Part shown: positions 11,990 through 23,560 of the stretch, in pieces
Position numbering within the stretch: the first letter of the stretch is position 1
Layout: each line of letters begins with the position of its first letter
Assembly: GCF_016127575.1 (NCBI RefSeq)
Contig: NZ_CP066019.1
Location: forward strand, 240,001 to 272,000
DNA from: Cupriavidus necator
Lineage (GTDB): Bacteria > Pseudomonadota > Gammaproteobacteria > Burkholderiales > Burkholderiaceae
Length of the DNA stretch: 32,000 nucleotides
Reading direction: 5' to 3'
Position numbers and translations under genes: made by a program
The notes under the pieces: model-generated
Seen by the model: the letters and a program-made list of their open reading frames with translations, nothing else
Told to the model about the DNA's origin: nothing
The model's database searches: none

Positions 11990-12454
11990 TCAGGCGACCG
12001 CACCCGGCGGCGCATGGCGTGCCAGGAAGCGGTCCAATTGCCCAGCGAACGCCTTGCTGTCCTGCTGGGCGTACGCTGCCGGCCCGCCGGTATCAACGCC
12101 TGAACTGCGGAGTTGTTCCATCACCTCGCGCATGGTCAGGCGCTCCTGGATGTTCTCACGGCTGAACCAGCTTCCTCGCGGGTCGAGCACATAGGCGCCC
12201 TTGTCAAGGGCGGCGGCGGCAAGAACGATGTCCGCCGTAATGACGAGGTCCCCGCTGCTGACCAACTCGACGATACGGTCATCGGCGACGTCGAAGCCCG
12301 CAGGCACTTGCAGTGACTTGATGAAGCGCGAAGGCGGCGTGCGCATGTACTGGTTGGCAACCAGCGTGACGCACACTTCGACACGTTGTGCGGCCCGATA
12401 CAACATTTCCTTGACGACAACCGGGCAGGCGTCTGCGTCAACCAGTACTTGCAT
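11990..12454 (-). CDS. yaiI: YaiI/YqxD family protein (UPF0178 / DUF188)
   Basis: MQVLVDADACPVVVKEMLYRAAQRVEV..LVANQYMRTPPSRFIKSLQVPAGFDVADDRIVE...GDLVITADI.LAA...LTMREVMEQLRSSGVDTGGP aligns along its whole length with E. coli YaiI as I remember it. Confidence 0.85.
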   Translation of the reverse strand: MQVLVDADACPVVVKEMLYRAAQRVEVCVTLVANQYMRTPPSRFIKSLQVPAGFDVADDRIVELVSSGDLVITADIVLAAAALDKGAYVLDPRGSWFSRENIQERLTMREVMEQLRSSGVDTGGPAAYAQQDSKAFAGQLDRFLARHAPPGAVA

Positions 12455-12584
12455 CGCGATACTTCCAATGGGGGGAGGGAACGCTCATCTTACTGCCTGC
12501 GCGTCCCGTTCGTTTGTTATTCGGCCAACCCCTGGTCCGGCGGTAGCCGGCCCGAACGCACCTTCGCCTTTACTTCCCGCGCCG

Positions 12585-12710
12585 CACCGTCGTGAGGTGT
12601 TCGCCAAAGAAATCATCGACGACTTGCGCGGAATCCTGGCCAACGTCTGCACCGAAGTAGAGGCGGACATTGTGGAAATCGATGGAGAGGACGATCACGT
12701 CCACCTGTTG
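12585..12710 (+). mobile_element. Remnant of an IS200/IS605-family Y1 transposase (TnpA), about 42 codons of the central core only
   Basis: HRREVFAKEIIDDLRGILANVCTEVEADIVEIDGEDDHVHLL matches the YRR-x-VF...E-x-NGE-x-DHVHLL core. Both the N-terminal HUH region and the C-terminal Tyr region are absent. It abuts the 3' end of the permease gene. Confidence 0.55.
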
Positions 12711-12744
12711 GCAGGATGTACCCGCAAGCCTCGCCGGCGCCTCT

Positions 12745-13533
12745 TCACGAATGCCGGCCACCCCTCATGATCGCGCTGGCCGTGTCGACCACGGCCGCCA
12801 GGGCAAGCATGGCGATGATCACCGTGCAAGCCTGGGGCAGATGGAACAGGGACAGCTCGAAATACAACATCTGCCCAAGCCCGCCGGCGCCGACAAAGCC
12901 AAGGATTGCCGCCACGCGGATATTCGTTTCCCAGCGGTACAGGATGTAGGCCAGAAACTGGGGCCATACGCAGGGCAGCGTCCCGTACATGAAGACCAGC
13001 GCGGCAGGAGTGCCCCCTTCCATCAGCGCGCGGGCGGGTGCGCGCGGCGCATTCTCCAGCGCCTCGGCGAACAGGCGACCGAGCACGCCCGCGGTATGCA
13101 GTGCCAGGGCGAGGGTGCCGGCAAACGGTCCAAGGCCGACTGCGAGTACGGTCAGGGCAGCCCATACCAGCTCGGGGATCGAGCGCAACAGGTTCAGTAG
13201 CAAGCGCGACAAGGCGCGCAGCGCATCGCCGTAGAGCCCGGAAGCCGGTAGTGCCAGGCCAAAACCCAGCACCGCCGCACACAGCGTGCCCACCGCGGAA
13301 ACCGCGAGCGTTTCGAGCATGCTGCCAGCGGTTCTGGCCAAAAAAGCGGGTGACAGCTGCGGCGGGAAGAACGTCAGCAGGAAGCGCGCCATCTCGGCTG
13401 CAGCGTCCGCGGAAAAAAGCTGACCCAGATCGAGCGACAGATACGCGAAGCTGCCCGAAACCGCGGCGGCCACCGCGATCAGGGTGAGCAGGCAGCGCAT
13501 GCAGAATTGAGCGGCCTTGACCTTGTGCGCCAT
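12745..13533 (-). CDS. phnE: PhnE-type ABC transporter permease (second permease of the selD-linked transporter)
   Basis: 262 aa and multi-TMS. PhnE-like blocks are FFPP..SP.FL, LETLA.S..GT and RSIPELVWA. The EAA-like region is EALENAPRAPARALMEGG, followed by YRWETNIR. Confidence 0.85.
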   Translation of the reverse strand: MAHKVKAAQFCMRCLLTLIAVAAAVSGSFAYLSLDLGQLFSADAAAEMARFLLTFFPPQLSPAFLARTAGSMLETLAVSAVGTLCAAVLGFGLALPASGLYGDALRALSRLLLNLLRSIPELVWAALTVLAVGLGPFAGTLALALHTAGVLGRLFAEALENAPRAPARALMEGGTPAALVFMYGTLPCVWPQFLAYILYRWETNIRVAAILGFVGAGGLGQMLYFELSLFHLPQACTVIIAMLALAAVVDTASAIMRGGRHS

Positions 13534-13536
13534 GAT

Positions 13537-14358
13537 TCAGTCGAGCAGCTTGCGCAGGTGCGCGCTGAGCGCGTCCGCCAGCAGGACCAGCAGCAGGAAC
13601 ACTAGCAGGATGGTCGCGGCTTCCCCGCCGTTGAGCAGTTTCATGGCCTGGTCCATCAACTGCCCAAGTCCGCCGGCGCCAACGAAGCCCATGACCACGG
13701 AAGCCCGGATGGCACATTCCCAGCGGTAGACGGTGTACGAGACCAGCTCCTGCGAGGCATGGGGAAGCAGCCCATAGAACAGTGCCGCCAGGCGCCCGCT
13801 GCCGCTGCCAAGCAGGGCATCCACGGCGCGTGTGTCGCTGGATTCGAGGATTTCCGCATAGACCTTTGCCAGCATGCCGCCATAGGTGATGGCCAGGGCG
13901 AGCACGCCCGCCGCCGCCCCCAGGCCGAGGGCGCGCACGAAGACCAGTGCCCACACCAACTCCGGCACCCCGCGCAGCAGCAGCACCAGGGCGCGCACGC
14001 CAGCGCGCACCGCCATGCGCGGCTTGCGTCCCCGGCCGGGGCCGATGCGCGACACCGACAGGCTGCCCGTCAAGGCCACGGCCAGAGGTGTTGCGATCAC
14101 AAAGGCGAGCGCAATGCCCGCGGTGGCGATCGCCAGCGTTTCCAGCGTGGCGTTGACCACAAGCCCGAGGAATCCGGGCGAAACCTCGGGGGGAAGGAAG
14201 TTGCGCACGAAGGCGCCCATCACCTTGAGGTTTCCGGTGTCGAACAAGGCTGAAGGGCTGAACCGGGACAGCTGCAACAATGGCCACAGCAGAAGCAGCG
14301 CGAGCACCAGGCCGCTGGCGCGCCGCAGCGCCTGGGGATCGCGCGGGTGGGCGGTCAT
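13537..14358 (-). CDS. phnE: PhnE-type ABC transporter permease (first permease)
   Basis: From ATG 14358: [69 protein letters not shown]. The ATG overlaps the phnC-like stop (ATGA). The 410-aa track ORF is an upstream extension. Confidence 0.85.
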
Positions 14359-15197
14359 CGGCACGCCGGCCTGGGTTGGGTGTCGCCACCGATGGCGGCG
14401 CTCGCACCTGCCGCGATGCTCGTCAGGGCCTGGCTGCCCTGTACCGGTGGCGATGCGCTTTCGGAGGCATAGAGTTCGCGCAGCAGCGCGTCGGTGACGC
14501 GCTCGGCCGGCAGGTCGAAGGCGATCTCGCCCGCCTTCAGGCCGACGATGCGGGGAAACCAGCGCAGCGCCAGATCCACTGCGTGCAGGCTGGCGACCAG
14601 GGGCACCGCGCGTGTATCCGCTTCCCTGCGCAGCTCGCCCAGGGTGAGGTTGGCCAGCACCGGGTCCATTGCCGAGACCGGTTCGTCCGCCAGGATCAAT
14701 TCCGGGCGCTGGTAAAGCACGCGGGCGACGCCCACGCGCTGCAGCTGACCGCCCGAGAGCTGGTCGCACCGGTCGAACAGGCGGTCGGCCAGCTCAAGGC
14801 GGGCGAGCTGTTCGCCGGCACCATCGATGTCTGCCGGATAGACCAGCGACAGCAAGGATTTCCAGGCGGGCCAGATGCCCAGGCGGCCGGCAAGGATGGC
14901 CGTGACCACGCGCTGGCGCGGCGGCATCGGCGGCGCCTGGTGCACCATGCCGATGCGGCAGCGCAACTGCTGCAGGCGTGCGGCGGATACCGCCCAGGGG
15001 CTTTGCTCCAGCACCTCCACACGGCCCTCGCTTGGCCGCAGCGACGTTGCCAGCAAGCGCAGCAAGGAGGTCTTGCCGGCTCCGGACGGACCGATGACGG
15101 CGATGGGCTCGCCGCGGCTGGCCGCCAACGTGATCTGGCTGAGCGCACGCTGTCCGTTGGCGTAACTGACGCTGGCGGCGTCCAGGCGGAAGCTCAT
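14355..15197 (-). CDS. phnC: PhnC-type ABC transporter ATP-binding protein
   Basis: Walker A motif [10 protein letters not shown]-loop, signature LSGGQLQRV and Walker B LILADEP. 280 aa. Confidence 0.9.
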
Positions 15198-15207
15198 CAG
15201 ACCGGCA

Positions 15208-16059
15208 TCACCGGATCAGGCCCGCGGCCCGGGCTGCGGCCTCGATGCCGTCGTAGTTTTCGGGCCGGGTGGGAATGTACCTGGCGGTCCGCTGCAATGC
15301 CATGATCTCGCGCTGCTCGGGATTGGCCGGGTCCAGCCGCAGGAATGCTTCGGTCAGCTTCTTGCGCAAGGCGGGATCGAGCCCGCCGCGCACGGTCCAG
15401 TTGTAGTCGTAATAGGGCGGTGTGACAGCAAATACCCTGACCTTGGCGGGATCCACCTTGCGCTGCTCCACCAGCTTGTCCCACACCGAGGCATTGAGCA
15501 CGCCGGCGTCGGCCCTGCCGGCCTGCACGAAAGCCACCGTCGCATCGTGGGCGCCCGAATAGGCGAGCGTCTTGAAGTCCTTGTCCGGGTCGATGCCCGC
15601 CTGCAGCAGGAAGTGCCGTGGCATCAGGTGGCCGGAGGTAGAGGACGGCGCGCCGAAGACGAAGGTGTGGCCTTTGAGGTCGGCCAGTGACTTGATCGCG
15701 CTGTCGGCGGTGATGAACTTGCTGGTGAAGGCGGCATCTTCCTGGCGCTGGACGATGGGGATGGTGGCTCCCTTCGTCCGGATCTTGCTCTGCACATAGG
15801 TAAAGCCGCCCAGCCACGCCATGTCGATCTTGCCGGTGGCCAGCGCTTCGACCACCGCAGCGTAGTCCGTGACGGGCACGAACTTCACCTTCATGCCGGT
15901 TTCCTTCTCCAGGTAGTTGCCGAGCGGCGCGAACTTGCGCTGCAGTTCGGTGGGGGACTCGTCGGGAATGGCCGAGACCTTCAGGACAGCCTGGGCACTG
16001 GCGAGGCCGGCAAAGCCCAGCAGGGTCAGCGCGGCAAGGCGCTTAAGCAACGGCAACAC
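15208..16059 (-). CDS. PhnD-family periplasmic substrate-binding protein (candidate selenate/selenite-binding clade)
   Basis: Signal peptide [24 protein letters not shown], then [60 protein letters not shown], a PhnD fold. The GTG start at 16059 has an AAGGAG SD at 16066-16071 inside the 3' end of selD. Confidence 0.85.
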
Positions 16060-17116
16060 GGGCGGCTCCTTGCGTCATTTCTCCGATCACGGCAGCGTCT
16101 GCGAAGCCTTCCCGGTTAAAGATCTCCAGGACCTCGTCCACGGCTTCCGGTGCGCACGACACCAGCAAGCCGCCGCTGGTCTGGGGATCGGTCAGCAGTG
16201 CCTGCTGGCTTGGCGTGACCGACGTGGACAGGTCCACCTCGCTGCCGTAGCTGACCCAGTTGCGCCCCGATGCGCCGGTCACCAGCCCTTCGGCGGCCAT
16301 GCGCTCGACCCGCGGCAGCAGTGGAATCCGCGCCATGTCCAGCCGCGCGCCGACGCCCGCGCCACGACACAGCTCCAGCAGGTGGCCGAGCAGGCCGAAG
16401 CCGGTCACGTCGGTCAGCGCGTGGACAGCCGGCACTTCGGCCAGCAGTCGGCCGGGCGTGTTGAGTTTGGTGGTGCAGGCAATCAGTTCCTGATAGCCGG
16501 CCGCGTCGAGCTTGTCCTTCTTCACCGCGGCGGACAACACGCCCACGCCCAACGGCTTGCCGAGGATCAGCTTGTCGCCCGCCTTGGCGCCGCTGTTCTT
16601 CTTGACCCGGTTCGGGTGCACCAGACCAAGGACCACCAGCCCGTAGATCGGCTCAAGGGAATCGATGGTGTGGCCGCCCGCGACCGGGATGCCCGCCTGG
16701 GCGCAGATCGATTCGCCGCCTTCGAGGATCTTGCCGATGACCTCAGGCGGCAGCTTCTCGATGGGCATGCCGACCAGCGCCAGCGCCATGATCGGGGTTC
16801 CGCCCATGGCATAGACGTCGGAGATGGCGTTGGTGGCGGCGATACGCCCGAAATCGTACGGATCGTCCACCACCGGCATGAAGAAGTCCGTGGTGGCGAT
16901 CAGGGCCTGGCTGTCATTGAGCTGGTAGACCGCCGCGTCGTCGCTGGTCTCTTTGCCGACCAGCAGTGCTGCCGGAGCAGCGAAGCCGACCGAATTCCTT
17001 AGGATTTCAGAAAGCACACCGGGGGCAATCTTGCACCCACACCCGCCGCCGTGGGAGAAGGCGGTGAGCTTGATCTTTGCGTTGTTTGGCTGGTCCACTG
17101 CGGGGCTCCGAGTCAT
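16043..17116 (-). CDS. selD: Selenide, water dikinase (selenophosphate synthetase), Cys-type; SenC-equivalent
   Basis: N-terminal KLTAFSHGGGCGCKIAPGVL matches the E. coli SelD Cys17/Lys20 loop; the codons lie at 17030-17041. An AIR-synthase-like body follows (DDAAVY, ATTDFF, GGHT). The ATG overlaps the upstream stop (ATGA at 17113-17116). Confidence 0.9.
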   Translation of the reverse strand: MTRSPAVDQPNNAKIKLTAFSHGGGCGCKIAPGVLSEILRNSVGFAAPAALLVGKETSDDAAVYQLNDSQALIATTDFFMPVVDDPYDFGRIAATNAISDVYAMGGTPIMALALVGMPIEKLPPEVIGKILEGGESICAQAGIPVAGGHTIDSLEPIYGLVVLGLVHPNRVKKNSGAKAGDKLILGKPLGVGVLSAAVKKDKLDAAGYQELIACTTKLNTPGRLLAEVPAVHALTDVTGFGLLGHLLELCRGAGVGARLDMARIPLLPRVERMAAEGLVTGASGRNWVSYGSEVDLSTSVTPSQQALLTDPQTSGGLLVSCAPEAVDEVLEIFNREGFADAAVIGEMTQGAARVAVA

Positions 17117-18108
17117 TCTGGTTTCAAGGCGTCGGCGACAAGTTTACTCACTTCCGCCCGTTCCCGCGCCGGCGCGAACAGCGGCGCGCGAATTGCGCAT
17201 TGCTGCCGCAGGCGGTCCAGGAACCCGGCATCCCGGCTGGTGCGTTCCAGCACCAGCGCCAATTGCGCGGCGTCACCCAACGGAAAATAGCCTTCGTAGT
17301 CACGGCCCAGCATGCCGACGTTGCCCGGGATGCGGCTGGCCAGCACCGGCACGCCACTGGCGACGGCCTCGATGATCACGTTGGCGCCGCCTTCCATGGC
17401 GCTGGAGATCACCATGGCCTGTGCTTTCCGGATGTGCTGCAGGGTTTCGTCATGGGGCAGGTTTCCGAGCCAGACATAGCGCCGCACGCCGGGCCAGGCT
17501 CGTGCTTCCAGCGCCAGGGCCTCCTGCCGATAGGCGTCATCCAGCGCGCCGCCGATGTGGATCAGGCGCACGCGCGAATCGTCGGGAAGCAGCGAGAGCG
17601 CGCGCATGGGCGTCAGCGGGTCTTTTTCCGCCCGCATGTGGCCGACCAGCACGACGTCGAAGTGATTCTGGCGGGGCGCCGCGGGCGCGCATGCCGGGGC
17701 AGACTGGTAGATCACCCGGCACCGGGCGCGATGCGCGGCCGCCAGTTCGGCCAGCCCTTCGTCCTGCAGCACCACCAGGTGGGTGGCGAGTTCGAGCGAG
17801 CGCTGGGCCGATGCATCGGTGCGGATGTCGCGGTACAGATCGGTGCCGGTCAGCACGACGATCAGCGGACGATCCGGACAAGCCTCGGCAAACCTGGCGA
17901 TGGACTCGGCCGAGCGCCGGGCGTGCAGGGCGATCAGGCAGTCGGGCAGGGCGCCGCCCTGGCTGGCCGTCGACCATTCAGCGGCCAGCGTGACATCGTA
18001 GTCCCCCTGCAGGAACCGGGCCCAGCGATTGGCGGTTTGCCAGTTGCCATTGTTGGCTTTGCGCAGCGCTGGACTGATAATCGCGACGGTGGCCTTGGGA
18101 GGACGCAT
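17113..18108 (-). CDS. senB: GT-B fold glycosyltransferase, selenosugar synthase SenB-like
   Basis: From ATG 18108: MRPPKATVAIISPALRKANNGNWQTANRWARFL. The C-terminal GT1/GT4-type motif is SSAMEGGANVIIEAVASGVPVLASRIPGN. It is translationally coupled to selD. There is no obvious SD, and the alternative GTG at 18192 has none either. Confidence 0.75.
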   Translation of the reverse strand: MRPPKATVAIISPALRKANNGNWQTANRWARFLQGDYDVTLAAEWSTASQGGALPDCLIALHARRSAESIARFAEACPDRPLIVVLTGTDLYRDIRTDASAQRSLELATHLVVLQDEGLAELAAAHRARCRVIYQSAPACAPAAPRQNHFDVVLVGHMRAEKDPLTPMRALSLLPDDSRVRLIHIGGALDDAYRQEALALEARAWPGVRRYVWLGNLPHDETLQHIRKAQAMVISSAMEGGANVIIEAVASGVPVLASRIPGNVGMLGRDYEGYFPLGDAAQLALVLERTSRDAGFLDRLRQQCAIRAPLFAPARERAEVSKLVADALKPE

Positions 18109-19309
18109 GATGACAGGTTCTGAGGGGGCGGCAGCAAGAAGGATAAACAAGTTCGAGCTGGATGCGGCGTTTGCCGATGCGCACCGGCGCACCTGGGCCG
18201 TGCTTGAGGAGCTGTCGCCGTCCCAATGGCAGGTTCCTTATGACGCGGGAATCAATCCGCCCTTGTGGGAGTATGCCCATATCGCCTGGTTCACGGAGCA
18301 ATGGGTGCTGCGGGAGCCACGTGCCGGCGAGGACGGCTGCTGGGTGGCCAGCCTCCCGTCCATGCTGCCGGACGCCGACCGCCTCTTCGATTCCATGCGC
18401 GTCGCCCACCGGGACCGATGGCATCTTGCGCTGCCCCGGCTCTCCGAGATTCGCGACTACGCAGCCGCCGTGCTGGAGCACGTTCGCGCCAGGCTCGCCA
18501 CGTCGGACGATACCGACGCTGCGCTCTATTTCTTCCGGCTCGCCTTGTTCCACGAAGACATGCATGCGGAGGCGCTGACCTATATGCGCCAGACGCTCGA
18601 TTATCCGCTGCATGCCCCGCTCGGCATGCCTTCCATTGCGCCGGGCGCCGGCTCGGCAGCCGCAGGCGGCGACACGTTCGCAATGGGGTCGCCCATCGGG
18701 GGCGACGGGTTCGTCTTCGACAACGAGAAGTGGTCCCACCCGGTCCACATCGCCCCTTTCCACATCGATCGCACTTGCGTCAGCAATGCCGCATTTGCGG
18801 AATTCGTGGCCGCCGGCGGCTACCGCGACCATCAATGGTGGTCAGACGACGGACGCGCATGGCTGCAACAGAGCAGGCTGGCGCATCCGGTGCGCTGGCG
18901 CCGGACAGCCGGCGGCACCGCGGGGCAATGGGCGTTGCGCTGGTTCGGGCAGTGGGTGCCGCTGCCGCCCGAACAGCCGGTGTGTCATATCAATGCCCAC
19001 GAGGCGGAAGCCTATTGCCGCTGGGCCGGCAAGCGCTTGCCCACGGAAGCCGAATGGGAGTATGCGGCAACGCATGACCTGATCCGCTGGGGTAGCGCCG
19101 TGTGGGAATGGACGGCTGATCCTTTCGTGCCCTATGCAGGGTTCTCGCCCGATCCCTACCAGGAATATTCCGCCCCCTGGTTTCACACGCATCGCTCGGT
19201 TCGCGGCGGATCGTTCGCCACCCATGCCCGCATGCAGCATCCTCGCTACCGGAACTTCTACCTGCCGCACCGCAGCGACCCCTTCGTCGGATTCCGCTGC
19301 TGCGGTTGA
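18107..19309 (+). CDS. senA: EgtB-like non-haem-iron sulfoxide/selenoxide synthase homologue (DinB_2 + FGE-sulfatase domains), SenA-like
   Basis: A GGGAGG SD at 18097-18102 precedes ATG 18107/18110. The DinB-type helix bundle carries a His (AHIAWF, 18278-18280) and an HxxxH motif (FHEDMHAE, 18551-18565). The C-terminal FGE-sulfatase fold contains HEAEAYCRWAGKRLPTEAEWEYAA and RGGSF...FVGFRC. Confidence 0.8.
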   Translation: MMTGSEGAAARRINKFELDAAFADAHRRTWAVLEELSPSQWQVPYDAGINPPLWEYAHIAWFTEQWVLREPRAGEDGCWVASLPSMLPDADRLFDSMRVAHRDRWHLALPRLSEIRDYAAAVLEHVRARLATSDDTDAALYFFRLALFHEDMHAEALTYMRQTLDYPLHAPLGMPSIAPGAGSAAAGGDTFAMGSPIGGDGFVFDNEKWSHPVHIAPFHIDRTCVSNAAFAEFVAAGGYRDHQWWSDDGRAWLQQSRLAHPVRWRRTAGGTAGQWALRWFGQWVPLPPEQPVCHINAHEAEAYCRWAGKRLPTEAEWEYAATHDLIRWGSAVWEWTADPFVPYAGFSPDPYQEYSAPWFHTHRSVRGGSFATHARMQHPRYRNFYLPHRSDPFVGFRCCG

Positions 19310-19367
19310 GGAAGGAGGGCGTCTTCACGGTGATATCAACGATGCGGCTGACACCGCCCTGACCACC

Positions 19368-19694
19368 CTAGCGGCGGGCCGACCCACCAACGCGAAGTGC
19401 ATTCACCACCAGCGAAAAGGCTGGCGATGCCTGGCGGCTGGGGTAGTACAGGTGGTAGCCCGCAAACGGAGGGCACCAGTCTTCCAGCACGCGTACCAGC
19501 CGACCTTCCTCGATGTGGGGTGCAAATTCCTCTTCCGGGAGGAAGGCGACGCCCAGCCCCTCAAGCGCGGCCATCACGATATGGGGCGTGCTGTTGAAAA
19601 CGGCCTGGCCGTCGTCGCGCACCTTCAACTGACGGCCACGGCGCTCGAAGTCCCAGACGGACAAGCCCGCATGCATCGCCGATGCCGCGCGCAT
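19368..19694 (-). pseudogene. Truncated LysR-family regulator (C-terminal effector-domain fragment only)
   Basis: WDFERRGRQLKVRDDGQAVFNSTPHIVMAALEGLGVAFLPEEEFAPHIEEGRLVRVLEDWCPPFAGYHLYYPSRQASPAFSLVVNAL is a typical LysR C-terminus. The upstream part of the 222-aa ORF is a non-homologous shadow of the opposite-strand gene, and there is no HTH. Confidence 0.6.
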
Positions 19695-19815
19695 GAGGTA
19701 TCTTTTACAAGGGCGAGGCACGCCAGCCGCCGGAAAGGCCCGGCGGGACTTGTGCCAGGGCCGTGGATCGGTTCTTGCATGGCAGGCTGTGCCCGAGCCG
19801 TGACAGGAGCGCGCC

Positions 19816-21264
19816 ATGTCCGAAGCACTTCGATCCTCGCTTTGCCGATTCTTCATCGCCTGCTGCCTGGGTATCGCAGCTTGCGGAGGGGGCGGGGGAG
19901 ACGGGGGCGGTGACAGCGCCACCGGCACGCTGACGCTCTCCATCTCCGGCCTGCCGTCCGGGACGTCGGCGGCCATCACGGTATTGGGGCCCGGCCAGTT
20001 CCGCCAGACCGTGACCCAGTCGACCACGCTGTCCAACCTGGCTGCTGGCAGCTATACCGTCAGTGCCGCCAGCGTGCTGGCTGGCAGCACGCTCCTCAAG
20101 CCGCAGCCGCCTTCGCAGACCGTGGCGGTGACCGCGGGCGGCAGTGCTTTGGCAAGCGTGGAATACGGCTCACCGGAAACAGTGCAGTTGTCGCTGACGC
20201 AGGTTGCCGGCGGGTTATCCGAGCCCATCTTCCTGACCGCGCCCCCCGGCGATCCGCGCCTGTTCGTGGTCGAGCGGGCCGGCCGCATCCGGATCGTGCG
20301 CAACGGCGCATTGGTCGCTACGCCGTTCCTCAATATCGCCGCGCTGACGACGACCGATGGCGAGCGCGGGCTGCTGTCGATGGCGTTCGATCCCAACTAT
20401 GGGACCAACGGCCGCTTCTACGTCTATTACACCGACACCAATGGGGCCATCACCATCGCCCGCTACAACGTATCGGCCGCGAATCCGGATATCGCCGCGG
20501 CATCCGGCACCGTGCTGCTGTCGATTCCGCACGGCACCTTCTCCAACCATAACGGCGGCCAGCTCGCGTTCGGCCCGGACGGCATGCTCTATATCGGCAC
20601 GGGCGACGGCGGCGGCGGTGGCGATCCGTCGGGCAACGCCCAGAACCCGGCAACGCTGCTCGGCAAGATGCTGCGCATCGACGTCAGCGGGGCATCCGGC
20701 TACGGCTTGCCTGCCGGCAATCCCTTCGTCGGCCAGTCCGGCAGCCGCGGCGAAATCTGGGCTCTCGGCCTGCGCAACCCGTGGCGGTTTACGTTCGACG
20801 CCGGCTTGCTGTATATCGCCGATGTCGGCGAGGACCAGCGCGAGGAAGTCGACGTGGCGCCGGCCACCAGCGCGGGCCTGAACTACGGCTGGAACCGGAC
20901 CGAAGGCACCGCCTGCGTGGGTGCGGCCACGTGCGACAAGACCGGGCTGACCATGCCGGTCTTCGAATACGGCCACGAAGCGGGCGCTTGTGCCATCGTC
21001 GGTGGCTATGCGTACCGGGGCAGTGCCAACCCGGTGCTGCATGGGCGGTACTTCTATTCCGACCTTTGCACGGGCAAGCTGCTGAGCTTCATGTATCGCG
21101 ACGGCGTTGTCGCAGAACAGGTCGACTGGAACGTCACGATCCCGGGCAGTGTGTTCTCGTTTGGCGTGGATGACGCGCAGGCGCTGTACGTGCTGGCCGA
21201 TCCGGGCACGTCGGCGACGAGCGGGCGGGTGTATCGGATCGATGTGTCGGACGGCACGCCTTAA
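19816..21264 (+). CDS. PQQ-dependent sugar dehydrogenase (soluble glucose/sorbosone dehydrogenase beta-propeller family), lipoprotein with an extra N-terminal beta-rich domain
   Basis: Lipobox LGIAAC followed by a Gly-rich linker. Propeller motifs include PRLFVVERAGRIRIV, ERGLLSMAFDP, HNGGQLAFGPDGMLYIGTGDGG, LLGKMLRIDV, GLRNPWRFTFD and YIADVGEDQREEV. Confidence 0.85.
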   Translation: MSEALRSSLCRFFIACCLGIAACGGGGGDGGGDSATGTLTLSISGLPSGTSAAITVLGPGQFRQTVTQSTTLSNLAAGSYTVSAASVLAGSTLLKPQPPSQTVAVTAGGSALASVEYGSPETVQLSLTQVAGGLSEPIFLTAPPGDPRLFVVERAGRIRIVRNGALVATPFLNIAALTTTDGERGLLSMAFDPNYGTNGRFYVYYTDTNGAITIARYNVSAANPDIAAASGTVLLSIPHGTFSNHNGGQLAFGPDGMLYIGTGDGGGGGDPSGNAQNPATLLGKMLRIDVSGASGYGLPAGNPFVGQSGSRGEIWALGLRNPWRFTFDAGLLYIADVGEDQREEVDVAPATSAGLNYGWNRTEGTACVGAATCDKTGLTMPVFEYGHEAGACAIVGGYAYRGSANPVLHGRYFYSDLCTGKLLSFMYRDGVVAEQVDWNVTIPGSVFSFGVDDAQALYVLADPGTSATSGRVYRIDVSDGTP

Positions 21265-21374: not shown

Positions 21375-22292
21375 TCACAGCAAATCGGCCAACCGCTGCC
21401 GGCATAGGCTCACGAACTGCTGTGCCGCAGTCGACTGGCCTTGTGCCGGATGGAATGCCAGGATTGCCCGGAATCGAACGGGAGCGGTGAGCGGTACGCT
21501 GCGCAGCCCGAGCGCAACGTAGCCACGGGCCACCAATGGATTGGTGATCGCAAGGCCAGCACCGGCCAGGGTCAGTGAGCACTGCGTGTGGCTGTACGGT
21601 GTTGTCGCCACGAAACGCGGCTCGATGCCGGACTCGGAAAAGCACGCTTCCAGCCGGCGTTGCGCAGGATCCGAAGCGTCCAGGCCGATCAACGGAACCT
21701 CGATCAGATCCTCGATGCCGACTTTCGCGCGCGCCGCGAAAGGATGCGTCGCGGGAGCGACGCAAACCGCCTGCACTGCGTAGAACTCGGACGCGGTCAG
21801 GCCGCTGGTGTCCGCCTCGTCGCCCATGAACGCGATATCGAGTTCGCGCTGAAGCAGGCGCTCGCGCAAGCCCCTGGAGCTGTCGACCTCCAGCTGGCAA
21901 CGAACGCGGGGGTGGTTGTGGATGAAGTCCGCCACCGATGACGGCATCACGCTGGAGGCCATGGCGTGCAAGGCGCCGACGCGCAGGATCGTATCTTCAT
22001 AGGAACGCAACTGATCTATCTTGCGCTGCACGGCGTCGAGGCCGACATAGACGCGCTCGACTTCGTCGATCAGGGACGCCGCCTCGGGCGTGGGCGCCAT
22101 ACGCCCTTTGCTTCGGTCGAACAGTCTTAACCGCGCTGCCTGTTCAAGCTGCAGCACGATCTGTGTCACGGCGGGCTGGCTGATGTGCAGGGCTTCGGCG
22201 GCCCGGCGCGCCGATCCCAGGCGCATGACCATGCGAAACACCTCGATTTGGCGGGCGCTGATCACGATGTCGGTGGCTGTCCCCATACCCAA
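21375..22292 (-). CDS. LysR-family transcriptional regulator
   Basis: The HTH is ISARQIEVFRMVMRLGSARRAAEALHISQPAVTQIVLQLEQAARLRLFDR, followed by a full-length effector domain. It is divergent from the PLP-enzyme gene. Confidence 0.9.
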   Translation of the reverse strand: MGMGTATDIVISARQIEVFRMVMRLGSARRAAEALHISQPAVTQIVLQLEQAARLRLFDRSKGRMAPTPEAASLIDEVERVYVGLDAVQRKIDQLRSYEDTILRVGALHAMASSVMPSSVADFIHNHPRVRCQLEVDSSRGLRERLLQRELDIAFMGDEADTSGLTASEFYAVQAVCVAPATHPFAARAKVGIEDLIEVPLIGLDASDPAQRRLEACFSESGIEPRFVATTPYSHTQCSLTLAGAGLAITNPLVARGYVALGLRSVPLTAPVRFRAILAFHPAQGQSTAAQQFVSLCRQRLADLL

Positions 22293-22366: not shown

Positions 22367-23560
22367 ATGACCACTTGGGCTTTTATCATGCGCGCCAGTC
22401 GCTATCCGCATCCGACCGAAGCGCTCGTCAATCCGGCGATGCATGCCCTGCAATGCATTACCTGCCACGCTCAATATCCAGTCAGCGACATGCCGGAAGG
22501 GTGCCCGAACTGCGCAAGCGCCGGCCGGCCCAGTAGTCTCGAAGTTGCCTACCAGCACCACGCACTGGATTTTGCACCAAGAAGCGGAAGTTATACATGG
22601 GGGCATTGGCAGCCGTACCTGGAAGGCGTGTCTTTGGGGGAGGGCGCCACGCCATGCGTACCGGTGCCAACCCTGGCGTCGCTGGCGGACGTGGCGTCCG
22701 TATGGATCAAGAATGAAGGCGCAAATCCGACCGGCTCGCACAAGGATCGCATGTCGGCGCAGGCCGTAAGCCGGGCGCTGGATATTGGCGCGAGCGAGGT
22801 GGTGCTGGCGTCAAGCGGCAACGCCGCAGTCTCGGCCGCGGCCTATTGCGCCGCCGCGGGACTGGACTGCGAAGTCGCGACCTACCAGGCGCTTCCGTCC
22901 GTTTTCGATGCGGCGTTGCGTTACTACGGTGCGCGGCGTGTCATCTGCGACAACGGTCACGCGCGATGGGCGCATGTCCGCCGCCGCGTCAGGGAAGAGG
23001 GAGCCTTTGCACTGACCAACTACAGCGTGCCCGCGGTGGGTAGCCCGGTATTTGGTGTGGAAGGCTACCGTGCTGTCGCACTGGAGTGGGTGGCGCAAGG
23101 ATGCCGCCCCGACCATGTCATGGTGCCGACGGCGCGGGGGGATCTGTTGTGGGGCATCTATAGCGCGCTGCGTGACCTGGTCACGCTGGGACATCTCCCG
23201 AAGCTGCCCCGCCTCTGGGCGATCGAGCCGTTCCCGCGGCTGTCGCGCGTGCTGGCGGGCGCGCCGCAGCAGTCCGACTTCCCGGGCACGACCCAGCAAT
23301 TCTCCACGGCCGGCTCGACCGTGACCGCGCAGCAGGTCCACGCCGTCAGGCAATCGGGCGGCGGCGCGGTGGTCATCGACGACGCGGCAGCACGCGACGG
23401 TACCCGCCGTCTCGCTGCGGCCGGATTCTGGGTCGAGCTGTGCGCGGGAGCGGGGTTTGCCGCCACGCAAGCGCTGCGCGCCGACGGGCGCATCGCCAGG
23501 ACGGAAGCAGTCATGCTGATGCTGACTGCACGCGGCGATCGCGATCCGGGACAAGCTTGA
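22367..23560 (+). CDS. Fold-type II PLP-dependent enzyme, threonine-synthase-like, with an N-terminal CxxC...CxxC zinc ribbon
   Basis: CITCHAQYPVSDMPEGCPNC (22454-22513). The PLP-lysine motif is NEGANPTGSHKDRMS, followed by SSGNAAVSAAAYCAAAGL. The start is ambiguous (22367, 22388 or 22439). Confidence 0.75.
   Translation: MTTWAFIMRASRYPHPTEALVNPAMHALQCITCHAQYPVSDMPEGCPNCASAGRPSSLEVAYQHHALDFAPRSGSYTWGHWQPYLEGVSLGEGATPCVPVPTLASLADVASVWIKNEGANPTGSHKDRMSAQAVSRALDIGASEVVLASSGNAAVSAAAYCAAAGLDCEVATYQALPSVFDAALRYYGARRVICDNGHARWAHVRRRVREEGAFALTNYSVPAVGSPVFGVEGYRAVALEWVAQGCRPDHVMVPTARGDLLWGIYSALRDLVTLGHLPKLPRLWAIEPFPRLSRVLAGAPQQSDFPGTTQQFSTAGSTVTAQQVHAVRQSGGGAVVIDDAAARDGTRRLAAAGFWVELCAGAGFAATQALRADGRIARTEAVMLMLTARGDRDPGQA

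Follow-up and report, generated by a model that had tools for sequence, protein, structure and literature searches.

Within a stretch of 32,000 nucleotides (nt) of the Cupriavidus necator genome (contig NZ_CP066019.1, positions 240,001 to 272,000; hereafter the window, whose own numbering is used throughout), positions 12745-19309 most probably constitute a self-contained module for the synthesis of selenoneine, a selenium-containing antioxidant; we put the probability of this reading at about 0.88. The locus is the sen locus of chromosome 2 of C. necator H16 (AM260480.1), to which the window corresponds exactly and with which the locus shares an identical SenA protein and deposited gene calls that agree with ours. 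An earlier annotation made from the DNA letters (called here the sequence-only reading) had likened three of its genes to the senC/senB/senA triad. Our analysis shows that the unit exceeds this triad and comprises seven genes over 6.6 kilobases (kb), including an ATP-binding cassette (ABC) importer of the PhnD/PtxB family situated 3' of selD. Four protein families could be identified, the catalytic and substrate-binding residues are conserved apart from two contacts discussed below, and the genes are arranged as is typical for sen loci of other species. The seven genes are the following (aa, amino acids).

18107-19309, plus strand: senA, predicted selenoneine synthase, a non-heme iron selenoxide synthase with a DinB_2 and FGE-sulfatase fold (400 aa; NF041186)
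17113-18108, minus strand: senB, predicted selenosugar synthase, a GT-B Se-glycosyltransferase (331 aa; TIGR04348)
16043-17116, minus strand: selD/senC, predicted Cys-type selenophosphate synthetase (longest open reading frame 357 aa; NF002098)
15208-16059, minus strand: periplasmic substrate-binding component of an ABC importer in the PhnD/PtxB family, assigned to the 'putative selenate' subfamily (TIGR04553)
14355-15197, minus strand: ABC transporter ATP-binding subunit, PhnC-like (TIGR02315, below cut-off)
13537-14361, minus strand: ABC transporter permease 1, PhnE-like (274 aa from the ATG at 14361, called as 273 aa in the H16 record; TIGR01097)
12745-13533, minus strand: ABC transporter permease 2, PhnE-like, the final gene of the conserved block (TIGR01097)

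The senB gene is adjacent and divergent to senA, in the head-to-head arrangement that the sequence-only reading had described (ATG at 18108 on the minus strand, ATG at 18107 on the plus strand), and selD follows immediately downstream of senB. Directly 3' of selD, on the same strand, come the four transporter genes, which are separated by 3-10 nt or overlap: the start of the binding-protein gene overlaps the 3' end of selD by 17 nt, and 10 nt separate the binding-protein gene from the ATPase gene that follows it. With overlaps or gaps of 3-15 nt between them, the minus-strand genes for SenB, SelD (SenC), the binding protein, the ATPase and the two permeases probably form one operon.

Identity of the biosynthetic enzymes

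The three open reading frames (ORFs) of the triad were all found at the coordinates given by the sequence-only reading. Pfam likewise agrees with the DinB_2 and FGE-sulfatase domains claimed for the 400-aa protein, and detects Glycos_transf_1 on the 331-aa protein. The 400-aa protein scores 528.3 bits on the SenA equivalog model NF041186 of NCBIfam, well above its cut-off of 420, and its best match among solved structures is SenA of Variovorax paradoxus (PDB 8RYZ/8K5I; E = 5e-97, 49% identity). The iron facial triad H58/H149/H153 and the catalytic Y351 align with H71, H167, H171 and Y363 of the V. paradoxus enzyme. These are the EgtB-type iron ligands that had been noted earlier, with the codon of H58 at 18278-18280 and the motif HEDMH (H149-H153) at 18551-18565. 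Alignment to residues described in the structural papers further shows that the hercynine contact N383 and the selenosugar contacts N50/E55/R104 are conserved. Composite active-site motifs are available for each subfamily (SenA, OvsA, EgtB-I and EgtB-II) from the 2024 ovoselenol paper (PMC11030361). In the window protein the corresponding residues are N50 E55 H58 H101 R104 H149 M152 H153 Y351 Y354 N383 F384 Y385 R389, and 14 of the 14 specified positions fit the SenA pattern xNEH--HRHxHYYN(F/Y)(F/Y)R. These comparisons support the assignment of the 400-aa protein as SenA, the selenoneine synthase.

The 331-aa protein scores 470.6 bits on the SenB model TIGR04348 (cut-off 300), matches the solved structures 8K5U (from a related bacterium), 8JJQ and 8FBX, and is 51% identical to SenB of V. 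paradoxus. The catalytic Lys158 of the latter corresponds to K162. Among the residues whose contacts with the sugar or with selenophosphate have been described (PMC11237966, PMC10891094), N20, T23, E231, R155, H58 and T83 are conserved as N22, T25, E239, R159, H62 and T87. SelD reaches 548.6 bits on NF002098 (cut-off 299) and matches SelD of Escherichia coli (3U0O, E = 7e-104), with Cys26 and Lys29, both within SHGGGCGCK, aligned to Cys17 and Lys20. The GGGCGCK motif reported earlier at 17030-17041 is real, although these coordinates cover CGCK only and the full motif spans 17030-17050.

Chance is not an issue here, as the three proteins score 471-549 bits on curated equivalog models. The equivalog scores, the 49-51% identity to the V. 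paradoxus proteins, the composite motif and the typical sen gene layout all agree with the recognition of the triad as senC/senB/senA, and support the assignment of the 331-aa protein as SenB and of SelD as SenC. The senABC locus of V. paradoxus DSM 30034 encodes the same three enzyme families with the same catalytic and substrate residues, the two SenB contacts with uridine diphosphate (UDP) excepted, and it too combines a senA divergent from senB-senC with a PhnD-type 'selenate' ABC transporter.

Proposed pathway and proposed role of the importer

The pathway has been reconstituted in vitro with the V. paradoxus enzymes (Kayrouz & Seyedsayamdost, bioRxiv 10.1101/2022.04.13.486033), and the chemistry proposed below is taken over from them by analogy. 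The PhnD/PtxB-type importer would take up a selenium oxyanion, which cellular reduction would convert to selenide, and SelD/SenC would use selenide and ATP to form selenophosphate. SenB would then transfer the sugar of a UDP-sugar to selenophosphate, UDP-GlcNAc being preferred in the V. paradoxus system, and the Se-P bond would be hydrolysed via Lys162 to release a 1-seleno-sugar. The divergently encoded SenA, an O2-dependent non-heme iron enzyme, would couple this selenosugar to hercynine at C2, forming a selenoxide whose spontaneous elimination would give selenoneine. Because the selenoxide eliminates spontaneously, neither an EgtE-like lyase nor an EgtC step would be needed. The donor also distinguishes the two routes: it is gamma-glutamylcysteine in the EgtABCDE pathway, whereas the sen pathway uses a selenosugar. 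Production in vivo would require hercynine, which would have to come from an egtD beyond the window.

The binding protein, whose gene is linked to selD, scores 400.4 bits on TIGR04553 (cut-off 250), the model for a 'putative selenate ABC transporter substrate-binding protein', a subfamily defined by linkage to selD. A putative selenate transporter adjoins many sen clusters (bioRxiv 10.1101/2022.04.13.486033). The protein has its fold family in common with the periplasmic oxyanion binders PhnD, PtxB, HtxB, AioX and ArrX but falls into the separate TIGR04553 subfamily; the arsenate binder ArrX and the arsenite binder AioX are among its more distant solved relatives. Under the tentative extension set out further below, the phosphite- and arsenite-type ligands of the family raise the possibility that the importer carries selenite rather than the annotated selenate. 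The ATPase should be regarded as PhnC-like, not as a phosphonate equivalog, because its score on TIGR02315 (210 bits) falls below the cut-off of 266. The permeases score 192 bits (13537-14361) and 223 bits (12745-13533) on the PhnE model TIGR01097.

Conservation and possible mobility of the module

We retrieved 80 species-level loci with a SenA profile and counted features within their flanks (individual loci are cited by L numbers). senB is present in 64/80 and is both adjacent and divergent in 57/80, while selD occurs in 46/80. A TIGR04553-like binding protein was found in 27 of the 80 loci; it lies directly after senA in 17/80, including the Variovorax locus L075, and directly after selD, as in the window, in 4/80. 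Members of the egtD cluster lie nearby in about 10/80 loci, a count obtained from ORF clustering with one member confirmed as TIGR03438. The Variovorax locus L075 thus differs from the window in the position of its transporter, after senA instead of after selD, and in a senA-senB spacer of roughly 100 bp or more (judged from tblastn ends), where the window has none.

In comparisons with L003, L009, L010 and L012, only the block 12724-19338 aligns at the DNA level, at 85-95% with three other Cupriavidus genomes and at 76-77% with a metagenome-assembled genome (MAG) of Paraburkholderia. On the left side, the conservation with other Cupriavidus ends at 12724-12739. In L009 (95% inside the block) and L010, nothing aligns outside it over flanks of 10 kb on each side. 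As only the block aligns and the flanks are unrelated, the seven genes behave as one portable module. This pattern suggests that the module relocates, or that the part of the second chromosome in which it sits is highly variable. Directly beside the left edge of the module lies a remnant of an IS200-like Y1 transposase (12597-12719, plus strand; 40 residues with the motif DHVHLL, corresponding to positions 20-59 of the 121 of PF01797), and it may be a scar of the event by which the module arrived. A repeat search at the module edges returned short, chance-like matches only and zero terminal repeats.

The divergent senA-senB pair is also kept in Burkholderia multivorans (L006), in Paraburkholderia (L013-L015) and in Glaciimonas (L008). 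Neither selD nor the transporter was found in the flanks of these loci, which cover up to 10 kb on each side (in L008 about 4.7 kb upstream); selenophosphate must then be supplied by a selD at another site.

Alternative explanations

Several observations weigh against the reading of the locus as a working selenoneine module. Two UDP contacts of SenB differ from V. paradoxus (R22 is Q24 and H235 is N243). The 'selenate' label of TIGR04553 belongs to a hypothetical equivalog, for which our literature search gave no experimental support, and the nearest solved structures of the binding protein (7S6G, 5LQ5 and PtxB) are binders of phosphonate, phosphite or ligands of the phosphate type. Family scans, which covered every non-shadow window ORF of 200 aa or more as well as several shorter ORFs, did not find egtD, which leaves the supply of hercynine unproven. 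A literature search gave no paper on the production of selenoneine or ergothioneine by Cupriavidus.

The last two points, together with the small share of related loci that have egtD nearby, also favour the leading alternative, namely that the genes do encode SenA, SenB and SenC while H16 has an incomplete or silent pathway and would then make only the selenosugar or nothing, or would depend on imported hercynine. We consider this rather improbable next to a functional pathway. The seven ORFs are intact and 85-95% identical across Cupriavidus, which argues for selection on function. Moreover, sen strains normally draw hercynine from a separate egt cluster, a co-localized egtD being limited to a small subset (bioRxiv 10.1101/2022.04.13.486033). 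With no egtD in the window, we infer rather than assert that the organism makes selenoneine.

The same scans did not detect selA, selB or selU among the ORFs covered. ARAGORN found no tRNA in the whole window and no Rfam family reached its gathering threshold there, so that the window lacks a tRNA-Sec or a match to any other known RNA family. For the window ORFs scanned and by these RNA searches, the absence of selA, selB, tRNA-Sec and selU asserted by the sequence-only reading is borne out, and nothing among them points to a locus for selenocysteine decoding or selenouridine synthesis.

It could also be argued that the 400-aa protein is a sulfur-specific EgtB, next to an unrelated cell-envelope glycosyltransferase and a SelD that serves selenocysteine or selenouridine synthesis. 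The older GenBank name of the protein, 'ergothioneine biosynthesis protein EgtB', and the DinB_2 and FGE-sulfatase fold that it has in common with EgtB are in keeping with this idea, and EgtB-I of Mycolicibacterium thermoresistibile (4X8D) does share with SenA the fold, the three-His iron site, the catalytic Tyr and hercynine as acceptor. The profile comparison that the sequence-only reading had proposed nevertheless separates the two families: the protein fails the EgtB model TIGR03440 (270.4 bits, cut-off 360), whereas the SenA model is passed and the glycosyltransferase is a SenB equivalog by TIGR04348. The pair Arg87/Asp416, which binds the thiol substrate in EgtB, is replaced by His and Phe/Tyr in SenA (bioRxiv 10.1101/2022.04.13.486033), and the window protein has His101/Tyr385 at these positions. 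From EgtB-I to the window protein, the changes at thiol-binding positions are S43 to N, D48 to E, R87 to H and D416 to Y. The EgtB-I motif xSDH--RRHQHYYNWDR was excluded on the same replacement and on N50 and E55, which misfit its S and D/H positions; the EgtB-II motif SHHYY...NFF was excluded on the corresponding misfit of these two residues. Neighbouring egtA, egtC, egtD or egtE genes were not found among the window ORFs scanned. An EgtB function is, in our view, very improbable.

We regard an OvsA-type enzyme that acts on histidine, with ovoselenol or 5-selenohistidine as the product of the locus, as equally improbable. OvsA is the next-best solved homologue of the window SenA (228 bits), and the ovoselenol pathway likewise combines SelD and a SenB selenosugar with a SenA-related non-heme iron enzyme that forms the C-Se bond, ovs clusters also using senB and senC (PMC11030361). 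However, OvsA uses histidine and selenylates C5, and its motif, which ends in YMQAYR, was excluded for the window protein, which ends in YYNFYR: the hercynine-binding triad Y354/N383/F384 is in the SenA state, where OvsA has M/Q/A. A partner methyltransferase resembling OvsM was looked for among the scanned ORFs of the window and not found, and OvsA is nearly confined to aquatic gammaproteobacteria (PMC11030361).

Gene starts and candidate signals

The sequence-only reading had described senB and selD as fused by an ATGA overlap. At 17113-17116 the senB stop and a selD ATG do overlap in the DNA, but this ATG (17116) is AAT, TGA, TAA or CAT in the four closest relatives and occurs in H16 only among the genomes compared; because it is missing in the closest relatives, the overlap is probably not the functional junction. 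The start conserved among relatives is a GTG or ATG six codons (18 nt) downstream, preceded by GGAG. It corresponds in the window to the GTG at 17098, probably the conserved start of selD, which would give a protein of 351 aa. The original GenBank call (CAJ95095) is this 351-aa SelD, and both versions of the start exist in public records. Operon linkage is unaffected, as the gap between senB and selD is at most 15 nt with either start.

At the other end of senB, the start codons of senA and senB overlap head to head by 2 nt (18106-18109), leaving zero intergenic DNA. Of the loci examined from Cupriavidus, Burkholderia multivorans and Paraburkholderia, most keep this overlap (among L003, L006, L009, L012, L013 and L015). 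In Glaciimonas (L008), where the annotated starts overlap as well, the start codon given for senA is ATA and the codon after it is an ATG. In many of the more distant loci, L075 and L034 among them, a spacer separates the two genes. The Shine-Dalgarno sequence of senA, GGGAGGA, is the reverse complement of codons 2-5 of SenB. Given the conserved overlap of the starts, each promoter would sit inside the other gene, and the two arms of the module could be coupled.

One candidate for such a signal is a sigma-70-type promoter for senA (TTGGCT-17-GATAAT) at 18053-18081 on the plus strand, inside the senB codons and 26 nt 5' of the senA ATG. Its -10 box falls within GCTGATAATCGC, which Cupriavidus, Burkholderia and one Paraburkholderia MAG all conserve and which also encodes the conserved AIISP strand of SenB. 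The candidate is the sole promoter-like match in 12000-20200, where shuffled sequences gave a mean of 1.0; since one match is expected by chance, it is weak evidence and only a lead. A terminator scan returned fewer sites than the shuffled controls.

It is tempting to go one step further and view the 6.6-kb block as a portable selenium-to-selenoneine cassette, in which the TIGR04553 importer would be dedicated to, and of high affinity for, a selenium oxyanion, maybe selenite, with the two arms secondarily coupled through overlapping 5' transcripts. We advance this extended proposal tentatively and consider it somewhat more likely to be wrong than right.

Genes to the right of the module

Beyond senA, a truncated gene of the LysR family lies at 19368-19856 on the minus strand, within an ORF extending to 20036. 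Of the substrate-binding domain it retains only the C-terminal part (positions 116-205 of the 209 of the profile), it has no helix-turn-helix domain, and it is probably what is left of a pseudogene. At its 5' end it overlaps with the beginning of a gene for a PQQ-dependent dehydrogenase of the GSDH type (19816-21264). Further on, a complete LysR regulator (21375-22292, minus strand) is divergent from a threonine-synthase-like, pyridoxal phosphate (PLP)-dependent enzyme (22367-23560, plus strand), whose N-terminal CxxC...CxxC pattern suggests a zinc ribbon. This regulator scores 108 bits on the model for a 'selenium metabolism-associated LysR', against a cut-off of 250, and a link to the sen module is for this reason unsupported.

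Annotation status and significance

The sequence-only reading, which itself shows that the system can be recognized in raw DNA letters, expected routine annotation to hide it. This holds for older records only, namely the EgtB name in GenBank mentioned above and 'Glycosyltransferase' in UniProt. RefSeq/NCBI already names the exact sequences 'selenoneine synthase SenA', 'selenoneine biosynthesis selenosugar synthase SenB', 'selenide, water dikinase SelD' and, for the binding protein, 'putative selenate ABC transporter substrate-binding protein', and the SenA label is likewise carried by several of the near relatives that the homology search returned. A list of 'characterized EgtB homologs' used as an outgroup (PMC8433421) includes C. 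necator WP_011616473.1, which may be this same SenA under a wrong label given before SenA had been recognized.

The locus is already known, in that the pathway was published in 2022, crystal structures and curated hidden Markov models exist, and RefSeq names the genes. In every feature tested it belongs to the published sen family, and what sets it apart from the V. paradoxus prototype is confined to the transporter's position, the lack of senA-senB intergenic DNA and about 50% sequence divergence. The scientific weight of the finding is accordingly small and its practical value modest. As a chemolithoautotrophic production host, C. necator H16 is in wide use and genetically tractable, and its native module could serve for selenoneine production. 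It could also help to determine the ligand of the uncharacterized TIGR04553 subfamily.

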